DNA from: Alphaproteobacteria bacterium
GTDB lineage: Bacteria > Pseudomonadota > Alphaproteobacteria > VGEJ01
Assembly: GCA_965226045.1 (NCBI GenBank)
Contig: CBDDBU010000028.1
Location: 1,241 to 65,240, forward strand
Length of the DNA stretch: 64,000 bases
Direction of reading: 5' to 3'
Of the stretch, positions 3,486-46,252 are shown piece by piece. The notes beneath the pieces are model-generated. The model had not been told where the DNA came from. It did not search any database and saw only the letters and a list, made by a program, of their open reading frames with translations. Each line of letters begins with the position of its first letter. Within the stretch, counting starts at the first letter, position 1. Position numbers and translations under genes: made by a program.

Positions 3486-4052
3486 TCAGGGATATGGGTC
3501 CTTCTTGACGTTGAAGGTGACCGAGATGCGGGGCCGGCGCTCTGTGTGGGGGTGCATGATGTAGAGCAGGTAGCTTGGCCAGATGACCATCAGTCCGGGT
3601 TCGGGATGGACGATGTAGCGCGTGGGAATGGCGGACCGATAAAAGTTCATCGATGCGGCCGTGTTCGGATTGAAGAGAGCGAGGGTGCCGCTATAGGGGT
3701 TGGTCTTGTCTTCGCTGCCGGGATCGACGTAGTAGGCGCCGGACCAGGTCGCGCCCGGATGAACGTGACTGCGGTGGAAATCGCTGTTGTCGTATATGTT
3801 GGCCCACATCGCGATAGACCAGTTGCTGCGCTCGGTGCGGCGGTATGTGGCGTAAATCTGGGTGCTCGCCCGCGTCACCATCGCGGCGGCGCGGTTCATC
3901 AATTCCTGAGCGTACTTGCCCCCCCCCCAGTTCTGGTAGTCCTAGCCCAATTGCCAGCCGCCGGAGGCTAGAGGCGGCTCGGTGGGCTGTGTCTTGGCCT
4001 GCTCGTAATGCGACGCTTGAGAGAGCGGTTCAACGTCGCGCTGTCGGGCCAT
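3486..4052 (-). pseudogene. 2OG-Fe(II) oxygenase-like protein (PF13759/TIGR02466-like), interrupted by an in-frame TAG
   Basis: Minus-strand reading is ATG(4052-4050)...GGWQLG-TAG(3944-3942)-DYQNWGGGKYAQELMNRAAAMV... The stop is in the same frame as the downstream 138-aa ORF, which carries the HxHPxxxWSG(A/V)YY motif. A G10 tract (C10 on +, 3919-3928) lies in the coding sequence. IS-A1 lies 48 bp upstream of the ATG. Confidence 0.6.
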
Positions 4053-4100
4053 CGGTACGTCAGTACAGGCGTCGAAAACAAGTGGATGAGCTTTTCATCC

Positions 4101-5475
4101 GAGCTATAACCGAATCTTGTGTACGGCGTTGAAATGAAGGCGGCGTATCCTGGTGATTGTTGATGTCACCACTTGAGCTAAGCCAAGGAAGGATAGGCCA
4201 TGAAAGAGAATACCGTTGTTGCTTTTCAAAACCCATCTGATTTTCAGAAAGATCCGTTGACGGAAGTCCTACAAGCTGGAGCTCGCGAGTTGTTGGCCCA
4301 AGCCGTTGAGGCCGAGGTCTCCGTGTTTTTGGGTAGCCATGCGGCGCTTGTTGACGCCGCCGGCCGCCGCCGGGTTGTCCGCAATGGATATCTGCCGGAA
4401 CGCTTCATCCAGACCGGGATCGGCCCGGTGAGCGTGCGCCAACCCCGTGTGCGGGACCGGGGGGACGGCGCCATCCGCTTCACGTCGGCGATCCTGCCGC
4501 GCTATCTGCGCCGCGCCAAGAGCCTGGAAGACCTTTTGCCATGGCTGTATCTGAAGGGCATTTCCACCGGCGACTTCGGGGAAGCCTTGGCGGCGCTCCT
4601 GGGGAGCTCCGCGCCGGGGCTTTCGGCCTCCACGATCACCCGGCTGAAAGAGGTCTGGGGGGTTGAGGCGGAGCGCTGGCAACGGCGCGACCTCACGGCC
4701 AAGCGCTACGTCTATTTCTGGGTGGACGGCATCTATTTCAGCGCCCGCATGGAGGAAGAGAAGCAGTGCATCCTGGTGATCGTCGGGGCCACGGACAAGG
4801 GACAGAAGGAACTGATCGCCATCGCCGACGGCTATCGCGAAAGTGAGCAGTCCTGGCTCGAAGTTCTGCTCGATCTCAAGCGGCGCGGCCTTGAAATGGG
4901 TCCGCAACTGGCGCTCGGCGACGGCGCGCTCGGCTTCTGGAAGGCGCTCCGCCAAGTCTACCCAGGCGCCCGCGAGCAACGCTGCTGGGTTCACAAGACG
5001 GGCAACGTCTTGAACAAGCTGCCCAAGGGTCTGCAAAAGAAAGCCAAGGGGCGCCTGCAAGACATCTGGATGGCCGAAACCAGGAAGGATGCCGAGAGCG
5101 CCTTCGACTTCTTCCTGGAAGCCTACGGGCCGAAGTACGACAAGGCCGCGGCCTGCCTGGCCAGGGACCGCGACGTCCTGCTGACGTTCTACGACTTCCC
5201 CGCCGAGCACTGGAAGCATGTACGCACGACCAACCCCATCGAGAGCACGTTCGCCACGGTTCGTCTGCGCACCTACCGGACCAAGGGCTGCCTGTCGCGC
5301 AAGACGGCGATGGCCATGGTCTTCAAACTATGCCAGTGCGCTCAGAGAAAATGGAGAAAACTCGATGGATCGAACCATCTCGCCGAGATCATTCGCGGCG
5401 TCAAATTCGTAGATGGAGAACGCCAGGATCGCGCCGCCGCATGATCAGCCCATACACAACTTTTGACAATAGCTC
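4101..5475 (+). mobile_element. IS256-family insertion sequence, copy A1 (1375 bp), with a 9-bp TSD TTTTCATCC
   Basis: Ends were defined by comparison with the identical copy A2. Imperfect terminal IRs are GAGCTATAACCGAATCTTGTGTA (left) and TACACAACTTTTGACAATAGCTC (right). Direct repeats sit at 4092-4100 and 5476-5484. Confidence 0.9.
4200..5444 (+). CDS. IS256-family (mutator-type) transposase
   Basis: 414 aa, mutator-type DDE transposase by sequence pattern. Identical at protein level to 27341..28585 (-). Confidence 0.9.
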   Translation: MKENTVVAFQNPSDFQKDPLTEVLQAGARELLAQAVEAEVSVFLGSHAALVDAAGRRRVVRNGYLPERFIQTGIGPVSVRQPRVRDRGDGAIRFTSAILPRYLRRAKSLEDLLPWLYLKGISTGDFGEALAALLGSSAPGLSASTITRLKEVWGVEAERWQRRDLTAKRYVYFWVDGIYFSARMEEEKQCILVIVGATDKGQKELIAIADGYRESEQSWLEVLLDLKRRGLEMGPQLALGDGALGFWKALRQVYPGAREQRCWVHKTGNVLNKLPKGLQKKAKGRLQDIWMAETRKDAESAFDFFLEAYGPKYDKAAACLARDRDVLLTFYDFPAEHWKHVRTTNPIESTFATVRLRTYRTKGCLSRKTAMAMVFKLCQCAQRKWRKLDGSNHLAEIIRGVKFVDGERQDRAAA

Positions 5476-5584
5476 TTTTCATCCTCTATGCTAGCTATCC
5501 AGTTCACCTCTATTGCTCGACTGCGGTCAGGTTGCCGCGGGCGCGACACCATGTTTGAAATGGGCTCGTTGGAGACCGATCCTT

Positions 5585-6622
5585 GTGCGGCGCATTAGAA
5601 CGGAAACCAAGCCCGTGGTCACCGCCATTCGTGCCGTCCTCGTTCTTCTTTTGTGCGTAGCGGCTGGCTGCACCCCCCGACAGCAGCTCACGACCGAGTC
5701 CACGGCACAAGCCGGTCTCCTCGGCGCCGGGGACAATGCGCAGTATGTGAGTAGCGGTGGACGGGCCGCGCCTGTGCGAATCTGGTCGTCGTCCCAAGCG
5801 CCGCGCGCCATCATCGTGGCCGTTCACGGCTTCAACGACTACAGCAATGCCTTTGATCGGGCGGCGGCATGGTGGGCGGCGCGCGGCGTTCAGACCTATG
5901 CATATGACCAGCGGGGGTTTGGTGCGACTAGCGAGGTCGGCATCTGGCCGGGCACGGAGGCGTTGGTGAGCGATCTCTGCGCCTTTCTGGTTCTCGTGGG
6001 CGCCCGCCATCCGAGTATCTCGCTTCATGTCCTGGGACTTAGCATGGGCGGTGCCGTGGTTCTGGCCTCGGAGGGCGGCGCCGTCTGTCGAAATCGGGTC
6101 GCGGTGTCGGGCGTTATTCTCGTCGCTCCGGCCGTCTGGGGGCGCTCGACGCTCGGCCTGATCGCGCGCGCCACGTTGTGGCTGGGCGCCCACGTTCTCC
6201 CCGCCCTTCACGTCAACGGAAGCGGGCTCCAGATCACTCCGTCGGACAATGACGAGGTCCTGAGGGAACTCTCGGCGGATCCGCTGGTCATCAAGAATAC
6301 GCGCATCGATGCCGTGTACGGTATGGTCAATCTCATGGACACGGCACTGCTATCGGCGCCACGCATGAGGACGGAGACGCTTGTTCTCTATGGCGCGCGT
6401 GACGAGATCATCCCAGCCGAACCGACACACCGCATGATCGCCGCCTGGCGCGGCCCGCTGCGATTCGCCTTCTATCCAGGCGGTTATCACATGTTGTTGC
6501 GTGACCGCGATGCCGAGACCGTCTGGGGCGACGTGTTGGCCTGGATCGACGATGCGACGGCGCCGCTGCCGTCGGGCCGTGACCAGGATTCCATCAGACT
6601 GCTTGCGCAAGACTCGCGGTGA
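5585..6622 (+). CDS. Alpha/beta-hydrolase fold lipoprotein (lysophospholipase/monoacylglycerol-lipase-like)
   Basis: GTG start gives a lipoprotein signal (RRIRTE...LLLCVAAGC). HGFNDYS and GLSMGG nucleophile elbow, C-terminal His. The start is uncertain. Confidence 0.65.
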   Translation: MRRIRTETKPVVTAIRAVLVLLLCVAAGCTPRQQLTTESTAQAGLLGAGDNAQYVSSGGRAAPVRIWSSSQAPRAIIVAVHGFNDYSNAFDRAAAWWAARGVQTYAYDQRGFGATSEVGIWPGTEALVSDLCAFLVLVGARHPSISLHVLGLSMGGAVVLASEGGAVCRNRVAVSGVILVAPAVWGRSTLGLIARATLWLGAHVLPALHVNGSGLQITPSDNDEVLRELSADPLVIKNTRIDAVYGMVNLMDTALLSAPRMRTETLVLYGARDEIIPAEPTHRMIAAWRGPLRFAFYPGGYHMLLRDRDAETVWGDVLAWIDDATAPLPSGRDQDSIRLLAQDSR

Positions 6623-6636
6623 TAGAGCGCTGATAG

Positions 6637-7884
6637 GTGAGAGCCCGCTATGCGAATTTAAGGGTCAATCAGGATCGGCTGTGGAAAAGCCTGATGGACA
6701 TGGCGCGGATTGGCGCCACGGAAAAGGGTGGGGTGTGCCGGCTTGCGCTCACCGAGCTCGATCGGGAGAGCAGGGACCTGTTTGGTGCTTGGTGCTGTGA
6801 CGCGGGTTGCGGCGTCACCGTGGACCAGTTCGGTAACATCTTCGCGCGGCGCCCGGGGCGCGACGACACGCTGGCGCCGGTCATGACGGGAAGCCACCTC
6901 GATAGCCAACCCACGGGCGGCAGGTTCGACGGGGCCTACGGTGTGCTCGCGGGGCTTGAGGTGCTGCGCACGCTGAACGATGCCGACTATCAGACGGAGG
7001 CGCCGATCGAGGTCGTCGTCTGGACCAACGAGGAAGGCTCACGCTTTTCACCGCCGATGATTGGCTCGGGTGTTTTCGCCGGCCTCTTTGATCTCGACTA
7101 TGCACGCGGCCGTGCGGACGCCGATGGCCGCAGCCAGGGAGAGGCGCTCGAGGCCATCGGTTACGCGGGCGAGGCGGCTGTCGGCGGGCGAGCGGTCGGC
7201 GCCTATTTCGAGGCGCATATCGAGCAAGGTCCCATCCTCGAAGCAGAGGACAAGGTGATCGGCGCGGTCACCGGAGCCCAGGGCCAGCGCTGGTATTCCG
7301 TGGTGGTTCGTGGTGAGGAGGCCCATGCCGGCACGACGCCCATGCCGAGGCGCAAGGACGCCCTCCTCGGGGCCGCGCGCCTGGTCGCGGAGGTCAACAG
7401 GATCGCGCTCGCCCATGCGCCCCACGCCTGTGGCACGGTCGGCGTGCTCCGTTCGAGTCCGAACTCGCGGAACGTGATCCCGGGTTCGGTGGAGCTTACG
7501 GTCGATCTACGTCATCCCGACGACCGCGAACTCTCCGTCCTCGACGGCGAGTTGCGTCGCGGCGTGCAGGCGATCGCCGATGAGATCGGCCTCGAGATCG
7601 ATATCGAGCAGGACTACGACACCGCGGCGGTTCCGTTCGACGATGTGTGCATCGAGGCCGTGCGCACCGCCGCCAATGACTGCGGCTACACCCATCGCGA
7701 CATCATCAGCGGCGCTGGGCACGATGCGGTCAACATCTCGCGCGTCGCCCCGACGGGCATGATTTTCATCCCCTGCGAGGACGGCGTCAGCCATAACGAG
7801 CGAGAGAACGCGCGCTCCGATCACATCGCGGCCGGGTGCAACGTGTTGCTGGACGCCATGGTGCGCATGGCCGATCGACGTTGA
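6637..7884 (+). CDS. M20-family Zn-dependent amidohydrolase (allantoate amidohydrolase / N-carbamoyl-L-amino-acid hydrolase family)
   Basis: 415 aa with the TGSHLDSQP, GGRFDG and WTNEEGSRF motifs of the AmaB/AllC family. Confidence 0.75.
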   Translation: MRARYANLRVNQDRLWKSLMDMARIGATEKGGVCRLALTELDRESRDLFGAWCCDAGCGVTVDQFGNIFARRPGRDDTLAPVMTGSHLDSQPTGGRFDGAYGVLAGLEVLRTLNDADYQTEAPIEVVVWTNEEGSRFSPPMIGSGVFAGLFDLDYARGRADADGRSQGEALEAIGYAGEAAVGGRAVGAYFEAHIEQGPILEAEDKVIGAVTGAQGQRWYSVVVRGEEAHAGTTPMPRRKDALLGAARLVAEVNRIALAHAPHACGTVGVLRSSPNSRNVIPGSVELTVDLRHPDDRELSVLDGELRRGVQAIADEIGLEIDIEQDYDTAAVPFDDVCIEAVRTAANDCGYTHRDIISGAGHDAVNISRVAPTGMIFIPCEDGVSHNERENARSDHIAAGCNVLLDAMVRMADRR

Positions 7885-15598: not shown

Positions 15599-17048
15599 CG
15601 GAGATGTCCCGGTCGATGTTGAAAAGTTGAGGTAGGTGTCGCTCTCCTGGAGCCGTTAGGCTCCGGGTGCTGCAAACCCAAGAGGGAGAACGACACCATG
15701 GGAAAGAATATCCGTAGTTCCAGTAGCCCGAAAGCCCTTGCCACCTCGTTTCCTATGCCGCCGCTGGCAGACGCGATGGACGCAGTCCGTCTCAGCGTGG
15801 ATCGGTTCTGTCTCCTGGCCGGGGTCGAGGCCTTGGCCGAGATGATGGAGGAGGACGCCACGACCGTGTGCGGGGCCCGACATCGTCGCCATGGGAACCG
15901 TCGGGGTTATCGCTGGGGCCATACGCAGAGCGAGATCGGCTACCACGGCGGCCGCGTGAAAGTGCAGCGGCCACGGGTTCGCGACCATGCTGGCAAGGAG
16001 GTGGGTTTGGAGAGCTGGCAGGTGCTGCGCGACGGCAACCTGTTGCTCGAGTGGGCGCTCAACCTGATGGTGCTGAACGTGTCGACCCGCAAGTACCACC
16101 GCGCGGTCCGTCTGCCCGAGGGCGACCTGGCGAAAGCGCGTGGCGACGGCACCTCGAAGTCGGCCGTTTCCCGGCGCTTTGTGGCGCTGTCGCGCAAGAA
16201 GATGAAGGCCTGGCTTGCCTCGGACCTCTCGGAGCTCGACCTGCTGGTCATCCAGATCGACGGTCTGCATGTCGGCGACCATGTCTTGGTGGCGGCGATC
16301 GGCGTCGATGGCAACGGCGACAAGCATGTCCTGGCCGTGGTCGAGGGGGCGACGGAGAACACTGTCGTCGTCCAGGCCTTGCTCGACAATCTCCTCGCCA
16401 GGGGGCTCGATCCGACGCTGCCCCGGCTGTTCATCGTCGATGGCGCGAAGGCGCTCAGCAAAGCGATCCGCAACACCTTCGGTGTGGCCGCCGCCATCCA
16501 GCGCTGCCAGGTCCACAAGGGCCGTAACATCATCGAGCGCCTGCCCCTGCATTTGCATGCGAGCGTCAAGAAGGCGCTCCGTCAGGCCTGGGACCAGGAC
16601 GACGCAGACAAGGCCGAACGGCTGCTGCGCAACCTGGCCCGGCGTCTGGAGCATGAGGAACCGGGCGTCTCGGGCAGCATCCTGGAGGGGCTGGACGAGA
16701 TACTCACCGTCATCCGCCTCGGCCTGCCGCACGAACTCCGGCGCTCGCTCGCCTGCACCAACATCGTCGAGAACGCGCTCGGCACGGTGCGCCAGGTCAC
16801 CCGCAACGTCAAACGCTGGAGACACGCCGAGATGGCGCTCAGATGGACCGCCGCCGGCCTGCTGGAGGCCCAGAAAACCTTCCGTCGCCTCAAGGCCTAT
16901 CGTCAGCTGCCCATCCTCCGAAATGCTCTCCAGGAACACTTGAGAAAGGCTCAGGCCGACAGTGCCATTGAAACCATCATGAAGGCAGCATAGCATCATC
17001 AACCAGCGACGCCTGCCCCACGAATTTCAACAGAGATAGGGACATCGC
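15599..17048 (+). mobile_element. IS256-family insertion sequence, copy B1 (~1450 bp), flanked by the 9-bp direct repeat CAGGTTCTC
   Basis: Ends were defined by comparison with copy B2. IRs are GGAGATGTCCCGGTCGATGTTGAAAAGTTG and, by reverse complement, GATGTCCCTATCTCTGTTGAAATTCG. Direct repeats at 15590-15598 and 17049-17057. Confidence 0.85.
15698..16993 (+). CDS. IS256-family (mutator-type) transposase, type B
   Basis: 431 aa, mutator-type DDE transposase by sequence pattern. ~99% identical to 25810..27195 (-). Confidence 0.9.
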   Translation: MGKNIRSSSSPKALATSFPMPPLADAMDAVRLSVDRFCLLAGVEALAEMMEEDATTVCGARHRRHGNRRGYRWGHTQSEIGYHGGRVKVQRPRVRDHAGKEVGLESWQVLRDGNLLLEWALNLMVLNVSTRKYHRAVRLPEGDLAKARGDGTSKSAVSRRFVALSRKKMKAWLASDLSELDLLVIQIDGLHVGDHVLVAAIGVDGNGDKHVLAVVEGATENTVVVQALLDNLLARGLDPTLPRLFIVDGAKALSKAIRNTFGVAAAIQRCQVHKGRNIIERLPLHLHASVKKALRQAWDQDDADKAERLLRNLARRLEHEEPGVSGSILEGLDEILTVIRLGLPHELRRSLACTNIVENALGTVRQVTRNVKRWRHAEMALRWTAAGLLEAQKTFRRLKAYRQLPILRNALQEHLRKAQADSAIETIMKAA

Positions 17049-39935: not shown

Positions 39936-40457
39936 TTATAGCGATCGATGTTCGGTGCGGGTCGATCGGCTCCGATAGCGGAGTCGGGTCGCGCGCGCCG
40001 CCGTATTCACCACCAGCATTCCGCAAAGATAGTCGTGGACAGTTCGTCCCCGATCATTGAATAGGGCAATGCCCAGGACTAGCAGCACCGTCAGGCCGGT
40101 ACAGAGGTAGAACAGCCCGGTCCACAGCGCTGCGCGCAAGTACGATGGAGGGCGGCCGTCAATCCGCACCGCGCGAAGGCCGCACAACCGCATGCCGAGC
40201 GTGGCCGACCGATCGCCGCCGAGCGTGACGATATGATATGCGAGCGGAATGAGGGCGTAGAACGGCGCCAGAGTCGGCGAGAGGATACCAAAGGTCAAGA
40301 TTTCGGCGATGGTGGCGGCCGCGCCGAAGCCAAGTAGCACCGTGACGATCAGCACGCCGTCGATACAAAACGCGAGAACGCGCCGGGCAAGTGCCCCTTC
40401 GTATAGTTCGGGTGATTCCTCGAGCGGGGGTGGCGCGGCGGTCCACGCCGCGTTCAC
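39936..40457 (-). CDS. RDD-family membrane protein
   Basis: RDD motif region (RRVLAFCIDG...) with 3 TM helices. A GTG start is assumed (start uncertain). Confidence 0.5.
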   Translation of the reverse strand: MNAAWTAAPPPLEESPELYEGALARRVLAFCIDGVLIVTVLLGFGAAATIAEILTFGILSPTLAPFYALIPLAYHIVTLGGDRSATLGMRLCGLRAVRIDGRPPSYLRAALWTGLFYLCTGLTVLLVLGIALFNDRGRTVHDYLCGMLVVNTAARATRLRYRSRSTRTEHRSL

Positions 40458-40521
40458 CTGCGCAGACCCGTCGGCGCCACGAAGCGGATCGTCGCGTCCA
40501 TGCCAGCGGCTAGTTGGGTGG

Positions 40522-41385
40522 TTATACCGGCGCCTGGCGCTGGAGGACAATGCTGATCCGCCGGTCTTCCGGCAGGAATGGATTCTCAGCGATGAGGGGC
40601 TCCTGGTCAGCACGTCCCGCCACCTCGCCGACGCGCTCCGGATCGACGCCGGCCACGACTAAGGCGCGGCGGGCCGCGTTGGCGCGGTCAGCCGAGAGTT
40701 CCCAGTTCGTGTAGCCGTCTCCAGTCCCGAACGAGGTCGCGTCCGTATGGTCGGTGATGAGGATGCGATTGGGCATGCTGTTGACGACTTTGGCGATTTG
40801 GGACAGCAGTATCGTAGTCCGCTCAGGTATTTCCGAGCTGCCGCTTGGGAACATAGCGCCGCCTTCGCGATCGACGACTTGAATGCGCAGCCCTTCCGGC
40901 GTCATATCGATTATCAGACGATCGCTGAGTTCGTCGAGCGCGGGATCCGCGTCGATCGCCTGGCGGATCGCGGCCTGTGCTTCCTCGAAGGCCTCCTCCT
41001 CCAGGCGCCGTTGCAACCCCTCCACATCTTCGGCGTCGGCCTCTCCAGCACCGCTCGACGGGGAGGGCGCTATCCGCATGACGACCGTCGGCGCGCGCGA
41101 ATCGGACTGGTTGGGGCCCTGTATCAACAGCCCGGTGTCGCCCATGATGCCGCCGGTACCGCTGGACGAGACACTGAACGAGGCCGGCGTGAAGTATTCG
41201 GCGACGCCACGCTTCTGCTCCTCACTGGTGGCAGCGACCAGCCACATCAAAAGGAAAAAGGCCATCATCGCGGTGACGAAGTCCGCATAGGCGATTTTCC
41301 AGGCGCCGCCGTGATGGCCGCCGTGGCCGCCCTTCTTGACCTTCTTGATGATGACCGGCTGGCCGGCCCCGTGGGCATCGCTCAT
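40522..41385 (-). CDS. motB: Flagellar motor stator protein MotB (OmpA-like C-terminal domain)
   Basis: N-terminal WKIAYADFVTAMMAFFLLMWL plug/TM region and a C-terminal OmpA-like peptidoglycan-binding domain. RBS GAGGG lies upstream. Confidence 0.85.
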   Translation of the reverse strand: MSDAHGAGQPVIIKKVKKGGHGGHHGGAWKIAYADFVTAMMAFFLLMWLVAATSEEQKRGVAEYFTPASFSVSSSGTGGIMGDTGLLIQGPNQSDSRAPTVVMRIAPSPSSGAGEADAEDVEGLQRRLEEEAFEEAQAAIRQAIDADPALDELSDRLIIDMTPEGLRIQVVDREGGAMFPSGSSEIPERTTILLSQIAKVVNSMPNRILITDHTDATSFGTGDGYTNWELSADRANAARRALVVAGVDPERVGEVAGRADQEPLIAENPFLPEDRRISIVLQRQAPV

Positions 41386-41413
41386 GGTTTGGCCCTCACG
41401 GTTTTACCCTTAG

Positions 41414-42882
41414 CAGCCCGTTGAAAAAGGCGTCATTGACCGGGTTTCACGCCACGGCGAAGCATATCGCGGCGAAGGCGGTTTCGCCATCCTCCGAGAC
41501 GATGAGGACGATCTGAACGACCAGGACGGCTCCAGCGGGCGTAACAAGCACGAACAAGGCGCCAATTCCGCCCGCCACGGCCTCCTTCGGGGTGCCGGCG
41601 CCGATGAGTTGGCGCATCAGCAACGATAGGTTGTGGCCGGCGACGTGAAGCAGGTATCGCTTGTGCACGTTCTCGCGGCCCCGAAGCCAGGTCCGGCGCA
41701 TACCGCCGCGATCGAGGTTGTGGGCAAAGGAGCGCTCGACGATCTCGGCGCGCAGCTTGAAGGCTTCCCTGGCCACCCCCGATAACAGCCGGGTCCGGTT
41801 GTTGGTGACCGCCCGGCGAGCCGCATCATCTCCGTGCCAGCGCGCAAAACCCTTCTGCTTGGGCTCGGAGATCCGGCTCTTCCAGGGGCCGTCGTCGAGC
41901 GCCTTCAAGACCAACCGTGAGTGGTAGCCCTTATCGGTCACACATTCGGCCGGATCTTCGGCCGTCGGCGCCACATCCACCGCCTCGAGGTTTGCCTCGG
42001 CCGCCGCCAGGGTCTTGGGAAGCGTTGTCGTATCGCCCTCGTCGGCCGGGTGCAGCTCCGCCGCCACCACCGCGCCGGTGTCCAGATCCACCGCGTGCTC
42101 GGGCTTGTAGGCCAGGTGCGTGGTGCCGTCCTTCATCTTGGCGATCTTGGCCTCGGGGTCGCTCCTGGAAACCCAGTCCTGGTTCGAGAGCTTCTTGCCC
42201 TTGCGCTTGCGGTCCAGACGCGCCAGGTCCTCAGCCGTGGGTGTCTCGATACCGCTCTCCTGGGCCAAGCGCTCCAGCATCCCCCGGTAACCCTCGCCCG
42301 TGTCCCTCCGCACGATGTTGCGCAGCGCCGCGTTGGCCTCCATGGTCGAGGCATCCACCCCGATGCGCTCGCCCTTCACCAGACCCGCCTCGGCGATCAG
42401 CGCCAGGACCCAGTCAAACACCGCCGTGTGGACTTCATGGGGCAGGCGCGCGCGGGTCCGTGACAGCCAGGAATGGTCCGGCACCCGTTCCCGCATCTCC
42501 AACAGCAGGAACTCCCGTAGCGACAGGGAATCCGAGCAGCGCCACTCCAGCCCACGCTCAGAGTCGATACCCTCGAAGTAGCCCACCAGGTGCATACGGA
42601 AGTAGCGCCCGGGTGGCACCGAAGGCGCCCCCATCCTGGCCGCGTAATAGGGCTGGCAGACCGCCTCGGCGAAGCCGTCGAAGCCGCCCTCGATCAGTAC
42701 CAACTGCAGGCGGTCGTAAAATACATGACCTGGCGAGCGCGGCATCTCCGACCAGCTCACCATCAAGTCCCCCTGACGATCCTTCTGCTGTCCCATCGCC
42801 ATCAGCGAACCCCCCTTCAGGCCAGGACACCAGAGAATCAGACCATGCCGACTTCGTCCAGGGAAGACTTCGTCAACGGGCT
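41414..42882 (-). mobile_element. IS5/IS1182-like insertion sequence 'IS-D' (~1469 bp) with a 4-bp TSD TTAG, inserted between motA and motB
   Basis: IRs are CAGCCCGTTGAAAAAGGCGTC and, by reverse complement, CAGCCCGTTGACGAAGTCTTC. TTAG sits at 41410-41413 and 42883-42886. The motA stop TAA is formed within the right TSD. Confidence 0.8.
41447..42802 (-). CDS. IS5/IS1182-family DDE transposase
   Basis: 451 aa with an InsH-like N-terminal domain and a DDE domain. Confidence 0.75.
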   Translation of the reverse strand: MAMGQQKDRQGDLMVSWSEMPRSPGHVFYDRLQLVLIEGGFDGFAEAVCQPYYAARMGAPSVPPGRYFRMHLVGYFEGIDSERGLEWRCSDSLSLREFLLLEMRERVPDHSWLSRTRARLPHEVHTAVFDWVLALIAEAGLVKGERIGVDASTMEANAALRNIVRRDTGEGYRGMLERLAQESGIETPTAEDLARLDRKRKGKKLSNQDWVSRSDPEAKIAKMKDGTTHLAYKPEHAVDLDTGAVVAAELHPADEGDTTTLPKTLAAAEANLEAVDVAPTAEDPAECVTDKGYHSRLVLKALDDGPWKSRISEPKQKGFARWHGDDAARRAVTNNRTRLLSGVAREAFKLRAEIVERSFAHNLDRGGMRRTWLRGRENVHKRYLLHVAGHNLSLLMRQLIGAGTPKEAVAGGIGALFVLVTPAGAVLVVQIVLIVSEDGETAFAAICFAVA

Positions 42883-42883
42883 G

Positions 42884-43740
42884 TTAGGCACCGTCCGAGC
42901 TGGCTATCGCCTCCTCGAGTTCGGCGAAACTCGGACGTTGATGGGAGAACAGTGTTTTCCGCGCGAACTCGATCGAGACGGCCGGGGCATAGCCCTGAAG
43001 ATGGGCGAGCAGGCCGGCTTCGATGCATTGATAGTACTTGGAGTCCGCGTCGGCCCACATCTCGAGGTTGCGGCTGCTGGGGCTCACGAATCCGTACGCC
43101 AACAAGATGCCGAGGAAGGTACCGACCAACGCGCCACCAATCAGCTTGCCGAGGATCTCGGGTGGGTCGGTGATGTGCCGCATCGTTACGACCACCCCAA
43201 GGACCGCCGCCACGATGCCGAATGCCGGCAGGCCATCACCAACATTCGTGACGGCTCCCGCCACCGCCGTCGCCTCGCCGTGGTGGGTCTCGATGTCCTC
43301 GTCGATCAACGCCTCTAATTCGTGGGGATTCTCGGTCCCCATGGTAATCAGTCGCAGGTAGTCGCACAGAAAATGAACGGCGTGCTTGTTCTTCATGAAC
43401 TTGGGGTATTCTTGGAATAGGGGACTCTCTTCTGGCGTCTCGATGTGCGTTTCCAGCGCCAACATCCCCTTCGACTTGGCGAGCCGAAAGATCGCGAACA
43501 AGAGCGTCAGAAGTTCGACATAGGCCGCCTTGTTGTGGGGGGGGCTTTGAGAACTCGCCCGGGACTCTTGAACACCGCGACAATTAGAGTCTTCGGATTG
43601 GAGAGAAGAAAAGCGCCGAATGCGCCGCCGCAAATTATCAGCACCTCGAAGGGCTGCATCAGCACGGTGAGGTCGCCGTGGGGCATATAGCCGCCCAACA
43701 CGGACCCGATCATCACCACTACGCCAATTATCGCCCACAT
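42884..43740 (-). pseudogene. motA: Flagellar motor stator protein MotA, frameshifted at a G8 homopolymer
   Basis: The N-terminal 95 aa (MWAIIGVVVMIGSVLGGYM...) lie in one frame and the rest (...KAAYVELLTLLFAIFRLAKSKG...) in another. The junction is at G8 (43527-43534). A ninth G would restore ...VLKAPPHNKAAYVELL... Confidence 0.7.
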
Positions 43741-43858
43741 GCTTCGCCAACCCGTCTCACAGTGAAGAAACAGCCGCCGATGCTTCTGCATGGGCGGTAA
43801 ATTCGTAACCGGCCGTTAGGCCATGATCACCCCGTCACGCCACGGCCCGCGCGCAAGA

Positions 43859-46252
43859 TCAGTCGGCGTCGCCCACGGGCGTCAGGGTCAACGTACCGAT
43901 GGCTCGGCGCGCGATCGAGGCTTCTGACGTTACCATGGGCACATATCCGACCTCGCGCCAGCGTTCGGCGAAGCTGTCGTACAGACTCGAAAGCACATTC
44001 CCCGATTGTCCCGTCGAATGAATGAACAACGACCGCTCGAGATCGTCCAGGTCATATATGGCTCGCAGGCTCGGCCCCTGGACAGCGGCGAATGGCGCGT
44101 CCTCGTCGCCGATACTATGGCCACCACGGTTAACCGTGTACTGACCACCCGGCGCCGGTCCCGTGATATCAAAGATATCTTGCAGGACCGGGACGCGACC
44201 GAAGGGATTGTGAGCGCTTCGCGCGGCATGCGCCTCGCCCCAACGCCATCGCGTCATCGATGAGCCATACCGGGCCGTCAAGTCGGCGATCGCGAGTTCC
44301 AGCGCGCGCGCCTTGATCTGATCGCAGCTCTCGACGATCTCGGTCCGCACGTCGTCACACCAATGACCATGCAGCGTCAATACGTTATGCAGGAACGGCC
44401 CTTTGAGACCCCAATAGTCAGAGAACAGGCCTCGCAAGTCGTCGGCATAGACAAGTCGAGTCAGTTCCCTCATCCACGCCACGAATATCAGCGGTTCCGC
44501 CAAACCCACCGCCATGTCGCCGTCCCATCCGATCAGGAGTTCCAGCGCCTGCGCCGTCTCCTCGCCGGTGGGCGCGGTGTCGGCGAGGAGCGGCAGCAGG
44601 TCCCTCGCCATCAGCGAAAAGCTGTCGGCCTGGAGGCGTCGAAAACTGTCGACGGAGTGTTTGTCGCGCCCGTCCAGCAACTCAGCGATGCGCCGCGCCC
44701 GATAGGGGGGCTCCCAGTCGTAGGTGAAAAAGTGTGGGTAGTCGGGCGCGACGATCTTCTCGTTGGCGGTGTAGATCTTGCCGGCCTCGGGGTTGTAGCG
44801 CCGTGGCAACTCGTCGAACGGGATGAAGCCGCCCCAATCGTAGATGGCCTCCCAGCCAGGTACCGGCATCAGCCCCGAGACGGCATTGTCAGGATGCCGG
44901 ATCGGCACGCGGCCCGGAGCGATCATACCGATGTTGCCGGCGACATCGGCGTAAACAATGTTCTGCTGCGGCGCGTGGTAGTCGCGAAGCCCCTCCAGGA
45001 ACTCCGTCCAGTTACCAGCGGACGCGATGCTGACGCCGGCCTGGAAGGTAAGGTCATCGTCACGTAGCGCCGTCCACGAGAGCGCTAGCACGTGGCCCTT
45101 CGGCGCCGCTTCCTTCGCCTTAGCGAACACGTCCGACATCACCGGGCCATGCCGTGTGCCGCGAACCGTGATGCTGACGTCCTCGCCACCGCTGACGCCA
45201 ATCACCTCCTCGCGCACGGTGAAGCGCTCGCGGCCGAGCGGGGTTTCGTACTCATCGGGTGATCCGGGCACTAGCCGTTCGATGAACAAATCCTGGACGT
45301 CGGGATTGGTGTTCGTGAAACCCCATGCGATGCGGCCGTTGTGACCGAGAACCACGGTCGGAACCCCCGGCAGGGTCGCCCCGATGATATTCAGTCCAGG
45401 CGCTTTCAGATGCGCGAAATACCAAATCGACGGCGCCGTCAAACCGAGGTGTGGATCGTTGGCGAGCAGGGGTTTGCCCGTGGCCGTATGCCTGCCCGCC
45501 ACCACCCAATTGTTCGAGCCATTGCCTTGGGCGCTGAAGTTGCTCGCTAGCGCACCCAGGGGCGCCAGCGGCAGGTCCCCGTACAGGGCGGCGAAGTTCG
45601 GTATCACCACCGGCCCATCGCCCGGAAAGGCTGGCAAGAACTCAACAATCCGCTCTGGCGGCAGGATCTGAGCCATGCGCGCGCGCTGGAGCTCGCGCGA
45701 CATGTTTCCGCCGAGGTTAAAGGCCATCATCTTGAGCCAGACCAACGAATCGGCCGGCCGCCACGGCTCGGGCGTGTGGCTCAAGACAATGAACTCAGGC
45801 GGCCACGGACCCTCGTGCGCGGCCAAGAATGCGTTTACGCCGGCGCTGTACGCATCCAATGTCGCGCGCGCCTCGACGCCAAGGTTGGGGTAGGTTCGTT
45901 CGGCGTGGCCGTAGACGCCCAGAGTGCGCAGGAACTTGTCAAAATCGATCGCGTCGGCGCCGAGGACCTCCGAGAGACGCCCGGCACCGATGCGACGGCT
46001 CGCCTCCATCTGCCACAGCCGATCCTGCGCGTGGGCATAGCCAAGCCCGAAGTACGCGTCGGCCGCCGAGTCGGCCATGATGTGGGGGATGCCCTCGCGG
46101 TCCCGTGTGATCTTCACGGGACGTTCCAAGCCCGCGACGGCTACCGTCCCATCCAGCTCGGGCAGCGATTGCCGGACGTAGACGTACCCGCCGGCGGCCA
46201 CGATGACAGCGACGACAACGACGATTAGCACGATTCGGGCTATCATTCGCAT
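43859..46252 (-). CDS. Penicillin acylase family protein (Ntn-hydrolase, S45; possible acyl-homoserine-lactone/penicillin acylase)
   Basis: ~798 aa. N-terminal membrane anchor and a SNNWVVAG nucleophile Ser motif. Confidence 0.8.
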   Translation of the reverse strand: MRMIARIVLIVVVVAVIVAAGGYVYVRQSLPELDGTVAVAGLERPVKITRDREGIPHIMADSAADAYFGLGYAHAQDRLWQMEASRRIGAGRLSEVLGADAIDFDKFLRTLGVYGHAERTYPNLGVEARATLDAYSAGVNAFLAAHEGPWPPEFIVLSHTPEPWRPADSLVWLKMMAFNLGGNMSRELQRARMAQILPPERIVEFLPAFPGDGPVVIPNFAALYGDLPLAPLGALASNFSAQGNGSNNWVVAGRHTATGKPLLANDPHLGLTAPSIWYFAHLKAPGLNIIGATLPGVPTVVLGHNGRIAWGFTNTNPDVQDLFIERLVPGSPDEYETPLGRERFTVREEVIGVSGGEDVSITVRGTRHGPVMSDVFAKAKEAAPKGHVLALSWTALRDDDLTFQAGVSIASAGNWTEFLEGLRDYHAPQQNIVYADVAGNIGMIAPGRVPIRHPDNAVSGLMPVPGWEAIYDWGGFIPFDELPRRYNPEAGKIYTANEKIVAPDYPHFFTYDWEPPYRARRIAELLDGRDKHSVDSFRRLQADSFSLMARDLLPLLADTAPTGEETAQALELLIGWDGDMAVGLAEPLIFVAWMRELTRLVYADDLRGLFSDYWGLKGPFLHNVLTLHGHWCDDVRTEIVESCDQIKARALELAIADLTARYGSSMTRWRWGEAHAARSAHNPFGRVPVLQDIFDITGPAPGGQYTVNRGGHSIGDEDAPFAAVQGPSLRAIYDLDDLERSLFIHSTGQSGNVLSSLYDSFAERWREVGYVPMVTSEASIARRAIGTLTLTPVGDAD

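Follow-up and report, generated by a model that had tools for sequence, protein, structure and literature searches.

Probable neutral decay of the flagellar stator operon motAB by a motA frameshift, followed by insertion of a mobile element, in an uncultured alphaproteobacterium

The window analyzed here, a 64,000-nt stretch of contig CBDDBU010000028.1 from an alphaproteobacterium, carries the flagellar stator operon motAB, in which motA is frameshifted and an insertion sequence (IS) of 1470 bp lies between motA and motB (Table 1). We consider it highly probable that the operon is decaying neutrally and that its IS-rich alphaproteobacterial host has lost either flagellar motility itself or the need for it. 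In the proposed course of events, motA would first have lost one base at or beside a C-run near codons 66 to 68, a change that would truncate MotA and abolish its function by itself. A highly active IS would then have entered the CTAA at the motA stop, duplicated these 4 bp, and moved motB 1.47 kb downstream. In one descendant strain, the C-run would have drifted to C11 and the transposase gene would have gained a nonsense codon. This is ordinary pseudogenization, which is real but involves no new mechanism.

The motA frameshift and the order of events

The original prediction placed a frameshift in motA at a run of eight G residues (C on the coding strand), and this is where the frame was found to break. 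The run is the sole 8-base homopolymer of the motAB region. A functional stator operon would have an uninterrupted motA frame; here, a −1 frameshift in the run ends MotA after 77 aa. The 77-aa piece matches MotA_N (PF20560), and the second piece matches MotA_ExbB (PF01618) and positions 63 to 281 of TIGR03818, the equivalog model of flagellar MotA1. The truncated protein keeps 67 native N-terminal residues, which match MotA_N, and the break falls around codons 66 to 68, presumably just past the second transmembrane helix. When one C is added, the repaired MotA of 285 aa aligns without gaps to 10 homologues, colinear over the full length, and reaches 366.2 bits against TIGR03818, above the curated cut-off of 303.8. 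Among the MotA matches listed, the nearest named relatives are Minwuia and Sneathiella, with 63 to 71% identity.

An ancestral run of nine bases, as originally assumed, is not established. In the nearest intact allele (L003/P0001; 95% identical in both protein and nucleotide sequence), the site reads AAA GGC CCC CCA CAC, and other relatives likewise encode K-G-P-P-H there. Intact relatives do not have a long run at this site, which is C6 or interrupted. Compared with these alleles, the lesion may have arisen not by a C9>C8 slip but by the loss of one G from the Gly codon beside the run together with a synonymous A>C change; this path is the shortest, and the slip costs one extra substitution. 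Either path leaves a −1 shift at or beside the run, and a +1 slip in the run would restore the protein with the substitution G66A.

Two public metagenome contigs (L001 and L002) are 99.95 to 99.99% identical to the window over 8.8 to 12.9 kb and do not contain the IS. Their junction reads literally GCC TAA GGGTAAAACCGTGAGGGCCAAACC ATG, which is the junction that had been rebuilt from the target-site duplication in the window, and the L001-to-window alignments overlap by exactly the 4-bp duplication. The predicted position of the IS, exactly between the motA stop and the ribosome-binding site of motB with a 4-bp target-site duplication, is therefore correct to the base. Since both IS-less contigs already have the identical C8 frameshift, the frameshift must be the older lesion and the IS the younger one. 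In a third contig (L097), the IS occupies the same site with the same orientation, the run is C11 and still out of frame, and the flanks contain six private single-nucleotide polymorphisms (SNPs); no more than two indels separate this contig from the window over 8.2 kb. The transposase of its IS copy (4942-6297) has a nonsense mutation, TAC>TAG (window position 41924), and one inverted repeat has a 1-bp insertion; this copy is decaying in its turn. In the four-way comparison, every difference of L097 is private, which is a simple star, and L003, which overlaps four of the six L097 SNPs, has the window base at each, so these four were derived in L097. The order supported by these alignments is the frameshift, then the IS insertion (window and L097), and then later drift (L097). 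Independent insertion or precise excision of the IS was considered and rejected, as a single insertion suffices given the star-like SNP pattern.

The frameshift is fixed in all four assemblies of the lineage, with C8 in the window, L001, and L002 and C11 in L097. The flagellar stator complex requires both MotA and MotB, and the IS would thus have landed in an operon that was already non-functional. The two hits on the operon proposed in the original prediction are both present, but they are ordered in time, and the operon was probably dead when the second one occurred.

It could also be argued that motA is really intact and that the run length is a sequencing or assembly error. Homopolymer indels are a typical long-read error, the related contigs bear long-read-style names, and one assembly gives the other length, C11. 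However, the C8 of the window recurs in two other records, which are distinguished from the window by the IS or by a SNP, although the read sets are perhaps not independent, and L097, given its small number of indels, is not error-ridden. Moreover, the flanking Gly codon is also altered (GGC to GCC), a change that an error in run length alone would not give. We regard such an artifact as very unlikely.

A further strain (L095:16000-21311; ERZ28669063 ctg5068) has synteny with the window that ends just past an IS21-like element. Beyond the break, an island of phage integrase, IS3, and DDE_3 genes replaces the CoA-transferase–amidase–motAB segment.

Selection on the stator genes and lesions in relatives

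The residues of MotA in the window lineage were compared with P0001 and 119 other homologues. V10M, G188R, and K241E each occur in none of the 119, while G223S is present in 1% and G66A in 3% of them. The derived states of P0001 itself are fewer and are found at more variable positions. MotB retains the YADFVTAMM segment and lies directly downstream of motA at the empty site, as expected of a stator MotB, and it narrowly passes the equivalog model NF006548 (278.5 bits; cut-off, 277). It is altered, however, at two positions in its OmpA-like, peptidoglycan-binding part: G212D (codon 212, 40750-40752) changes the GHTD motif to DHTD, and N274D (codon 274, 40564-40566) changes NRR to DRR. The original residue is present at both positions in 72 of 72 homologues and in the related contig L098. 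This calls for caution in annotation, as motB seems intact yet is altered in two invariant motifs.

Related lineages carry other lesions in the operon. Three contigs of a sister lineage whose MotA belongs to the same 90% cluster as that of the window, L098 (ERZ28763718 ctg125603, 4.54 Mb, 6001-6900), L099 (ERZ25071132), and L100 (ERZ25068966), have a 1-nt deletion at the GLPAFG codons (around codon 172) and a CAA>TAA change at codon 238 of motA. The DNA of L098 and L099 is identical at both lesions, and L100, which was compared as protein, has the same shortened MotA fragment. The penicillin amidase gene upstream of motA is also fragmented in these three contigs. In L101 (ERZ23495043 scaffold_55648, 69-1150), a close motA allele, all homology is lost past codon 238 (KYYQ) and motB is missing downstream; the contig may be chimeric, or the break would represent a deletion or a rearrangement. 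Another relative, L026, is more distant; it is a GTDB metagenome-assembled genome (CBDCMV010000003.1, a 3.76-Mb contig, 5900-7700) and has one frameshift in motA (GGGGCC>GGGCC, codon 203) and two in motB. Its gene order is that of the window (penicillin amidase, motA, motB, CitMHS transporter), and the neighboring genes for proteins of 805 and 617 aa are intact. The decay of motAB in L026 is independent of that in the window. The relaxed selection on motility suggested by the original prediction gains strength from the frameshift fixed in four assemblies, the substitutions at invariant sites, the independent lesions in relatives, and the abundance of ISs in the window. We suggest that relaxed selection is the likely cause of the decay and that the corresponding phenotype would be a loss of motility.

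Several observations weigh against the neutral decay of motAB. The run length is polymorphic (C8, C11), as it is in contingency loci, although both alleles are in the same frame. The motB open reading frame (ORF) is complete in all strains. When motA is compared with the intact L003, the ratio of nonsynonymous to synonymous substitution rates (dN/dS) is 0.23 overall and falls to 0.12 beyond the frameshift. Most of the divergence would thus have arisen under constraint, and either inactivation occurred only recently compared with the 5% divergence or translation somehow continues; the divergence since the frameshift is too small for this ratio to be decisive. The overall value fits purifying selection on an otherwise maintained gene, yet it stands beside five rare or absent residues in MotA and the changed motifs in MotB. 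In addition, the gene tables of the window and of about 20 kb to each side in a related contig list housekeeping genes and ISs only and no flagellar gene. With regard to the other flagellar genes, whose integrity had been raised as a point of interest, tblastn with E. coli FliF, FliG, FliI, FliM, FliN, FliP, FliR, FlhA, FlhB, and CheY was run on the window and on all fetched loci and found none in the window or in any alphaproteobacterial or IS-copy locus.

A full-length allele of the lineage was found neither in the 90% protein cluster, nor in the GTDB representative genomes among the matches listed, nor in the JGI contigs. The GTDB scan with the MotA alignment found L026, and its best hits among the matches listed were 67 to 68% identical, the genome of the window not being among them. 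The JGI metagenome scan with the repaired MotA found nothing closer than 77% and no further tract lengths.

These data also bear on phase-variable motility, which the original prediction gave as the alternative. In this case, the C-run would be a contingency tract whose slippage between C8 and C9 switches MotA reversibly between OFF and ON. The tract does lie in the coding region, its length does differ between strains, and the addition of one C gives a MotA that passes the equivalog model. There is also a precedent in Campylobacter jejuni 81-176, in which spontaneous motA mutations have been described, including a class that maps to a phase-variable homopolymeric region (PMC3928116). The window lineage resembles C. 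jejuni in that motA is the target and a homopolymeric run is involved. However, motile and non-motile variants coexist in C. jejuni, as demonstrated by phenotype, whereas only OFF alleles and further degenerative changes are found in the window lineage. All assembly-level alleles have 3n+2 lengths, C8 in three and C11 in one, and no ON allele was detected in the protein cluster, in the GTDB genomes among the matches listed, or in the JGI contigs. The C8 run persisted through the insertion of the IS and the build-up of SNPs, and the intact relatives, with C6 or an interrupted run, have no comparable tract. A C9 revertant would still bear G66A, V10M, G188R, G223S, and K241E beside a MotB with altered GHTD and NRR motifs, and the sister lineages have lost motA through irreversible lesions. 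The run length is polymorphic, but we consider reversible switching of motility improbable.

Full-length MotA might also be produced from C8 and C11 by recoding, either through −1 ribosomal frameshifting on C_CCC_CCC or through transcriptional slippage on the C-run. In the zero-frame reading GC[C CCC CCC] ACA, a perfect X_XXY_YYZ heptamer stands in the correct phase, and shifting by −1 there gives the homologue-like KAPPHNK. C8 and C11 require the same −1 shift, and continued translation would be consistent with the low dN/dS beyond the site. However, no stimulatory structure is predicted downstream, as the fold of the 119 nt starting from the site is no more stable than that of shuffled sequences (z = −0.41). 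The shift is also not conserved, since the closest relative (95% identical protein) and all the other homologues are plainly in frame, and the lineage has its other degenerative changes. Neither C-run heptamers nor C-runs are known as efficient slippage sites in bacteria. We therefore consider recoding very improbable. Taken more broadly, the C-run could be a working switch or recoding site, with slippage of DNA, RNA, or the ribosome, so that full-length MotA would come from a minority of the cells or transcripts. The sole hints of this are the C11 run in the same frame as C8 and the low downstream dN/dS, and we give it a low probability. If it were true, it would represent stochastic stator expression in an environmental high-G+C alphaproteobacterium.

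The insertion sequence and its target

The IS has the hallmarks of IS5/IS1182 elements, namely a DDE transposase, inverted repeats, a short target duplication, and multiple copies. Against the curated NCBIfam models, its transposase scores 164 bits for IS1182 (cut-off, 270) and 80 bits for IS5_4 (cut-off, 140), both below the thresholds although these two models match it best, and the putative assignment stays at the level of the IS5/IS1182 superfamily. The transposase is 63 to 70% identical to plasmid-encoded proteins, among them one with the annotation IS5 family transposase. Of the nine further full-length copies of the IS that were found elsewhere, eight are 100% identical and the ninth differs by a single mismatch; the copy at a tenth locus is truncated.

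The same IS is present on ERZ28763718 ctg125407 (4.07 Mb; L090-L092) in at least two full copies and one truncated copy, with 0 to 1 mismatch in 1470 bp. The intact MotA that is probably encoded on this contig, P0004, is only 75% identical, which indicates a different species, and the index lists the transposase protein in 722 blocks. The copies in this contig together with these listings suggest a very recent horizontal spread and expansion of the IS.

All nine of the other full-length copies have 4-bp flanks of the form NTAN. The flanks are matching duplications in six copies (TTAG three times, TTAA twice, and CTAT once) and are mismatched in three. The tetranucleotide YTAR is scarce in the window, which has a G+C content of 64%: 112 sites were observed compared with 509 expected from the base composition, and TA dinucleotides occur at about half of the expectation. 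This depletion funnels the IS into few sites. The 1745-bp motAB operon contains four YTAR sites, among them the motA stop, and given an insertion into motAB, the chance of hitting the stop is about one in four. The precise position at the stop codon that the original prediction had emphasized is thus real but unremarkable, being due to the preference of the IS for NTAN (mostly YTAR) targets and the small number of such sites rather than to selection.

In E. coli, CTAA or CTAG flanks the copies of IS5 (PMC11677980). The IS of the window is like E. coli IS5 in its DDE_Tnp_1-type transposase, its CTAA/CTAG-type 4-bp duplications, and its TA-containing tetranucleotide targets. In contrast, its transposase is longer, at 451 aa, and has DUF772 at the N-terminus, and the IS also takes TTAA and CTAT.

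The IS had also been regarded as a disabling hit that separates motB from motA. This was not supported, as the IS breaks neither of the flanking ORFs, its transposase gene runs codirectionally with motB, and terminator prediction gave none within the element. The transposase gene ends 61 nt upstream of the motB start, and the motB ATG lies 24 nt past the second CTAA copy. Such an arrangement could be adaptive if the IS had uncoupled motB from motA and brought it under IS-borne transcription for a non-flagellar function. The codirectional transposase gene close to the motB start, the lack of a predicted terminator-like site in the IS, and the untouched ORF and ribosome-binding site of motB are consistent with this. 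However, a promoter and terminator scan of 40300-44000 predicted neither inside the IS and no outward promoter, with only chance-level matches elsewhere. MotB is altered at the two invariant positions of its peptidoglycan-binding motifs, the insertion site is fully explained by target preference, and the IS-less strains are otherwise nearly identical to the window. An adaptive role of the IS is therefore extremely unlikely.

Other features of the window and comparison with known systems

Table 1. Positions of the motAB features and of the inserted element in the window
Feature	Position	Strand	Remarks
motA pseudogene	42884..43740	minus	857 nt; 285 aa if one base is added in or next to the C-run
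motA start and stop	ATG at 43740; TAA at 42886-42884	minus	
Frameshift site, AAA GCC CCC CCC ACA on the coding strand	43537..43544	minus	G8 on the plus strand, C8 on the coding strand
IS5/IS1182-like IS, 1470 bp	41414..42883	minus	Putative superfamily assignment; oriented as motAB; terminal inverted repeats; other copies; absent from L001 and L002
Imperfect terminal inverted repeats of the IS	41414-41434 and 42863-42883		
Transposase gene	41447..42802	minus	451 aa; DUF772 + DDE_Tnp_1 + DDE_Tnp_1_6
Target-site duplication, copy 1, CTAA	42884..42887	minus	TTAG on the plus strand; its TAA is the motA stop
Target-site duplication, copy 2, CTAA	41410..41413	minus	TTAG on the plus strand
Original motA-motB spacer with the motB ribosome-binding site, GGGTAAAACCGTGAGGGCCAAACC	41386..41409	minus	Same as in the empty-site junction of L001 and L002
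motB	40522..41385	minus	287-aa ORF, intact; ATG at 41385; MotB_plug (PF13677) + OmpA (PF00691)

The window is rich in ISs and contains, in addition to the IS in motAB, four IS256-family copies and one IS21-like element. The IS256-family (Transposase_mut) copies form inverted pairs, 4101-5475/27310-28684 and 15600-17046/25844-27293, which are 99 to 100% identical. In the second pair, an indel near 16123-16126 results in ORFs of 431 and 461 aa. Through these nested inverted pairs, the 5.5- to 27.3-kb segment could become inverted. The longest homopolymer of the window is a C10 run (plus strand) at 3919-3928, on the 5′ side of a 2OG-FeII_Oxy_5 gene (3486-4100). The N-terminal part of this gene is in another frame, with a stop in between, and the gene directly adjoins the IS at 4101; it is probably another pseudogene.

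The decay of motility genes by frameshift and IS is textbook reductive evolution, and the mechanism itself matters little. The motAB operon of the window has a modest value as a dated example, since strain-level contigs order the frameshift, the IS, and the further drift. The different breaks of motA and motB across related lineages suggest that the whole clade, an uncultured alphaproteobacterial group laden with ISs, is moving away from flagellar motility.

Pseudogenization of motility genes by frameshift or IS when motility is no longer needed is well known from Shigella, Yersinia pestis, Burkholderia mallei, Bordetella pertussis, and insect symbionts. Unlike these organisms, that of the window is uncultured and known only from metagenome assemblies. 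It has in common with them a frameshift and an IS in motility genes, an IS-rich genome, and independent lesions that differ between sister lineages.

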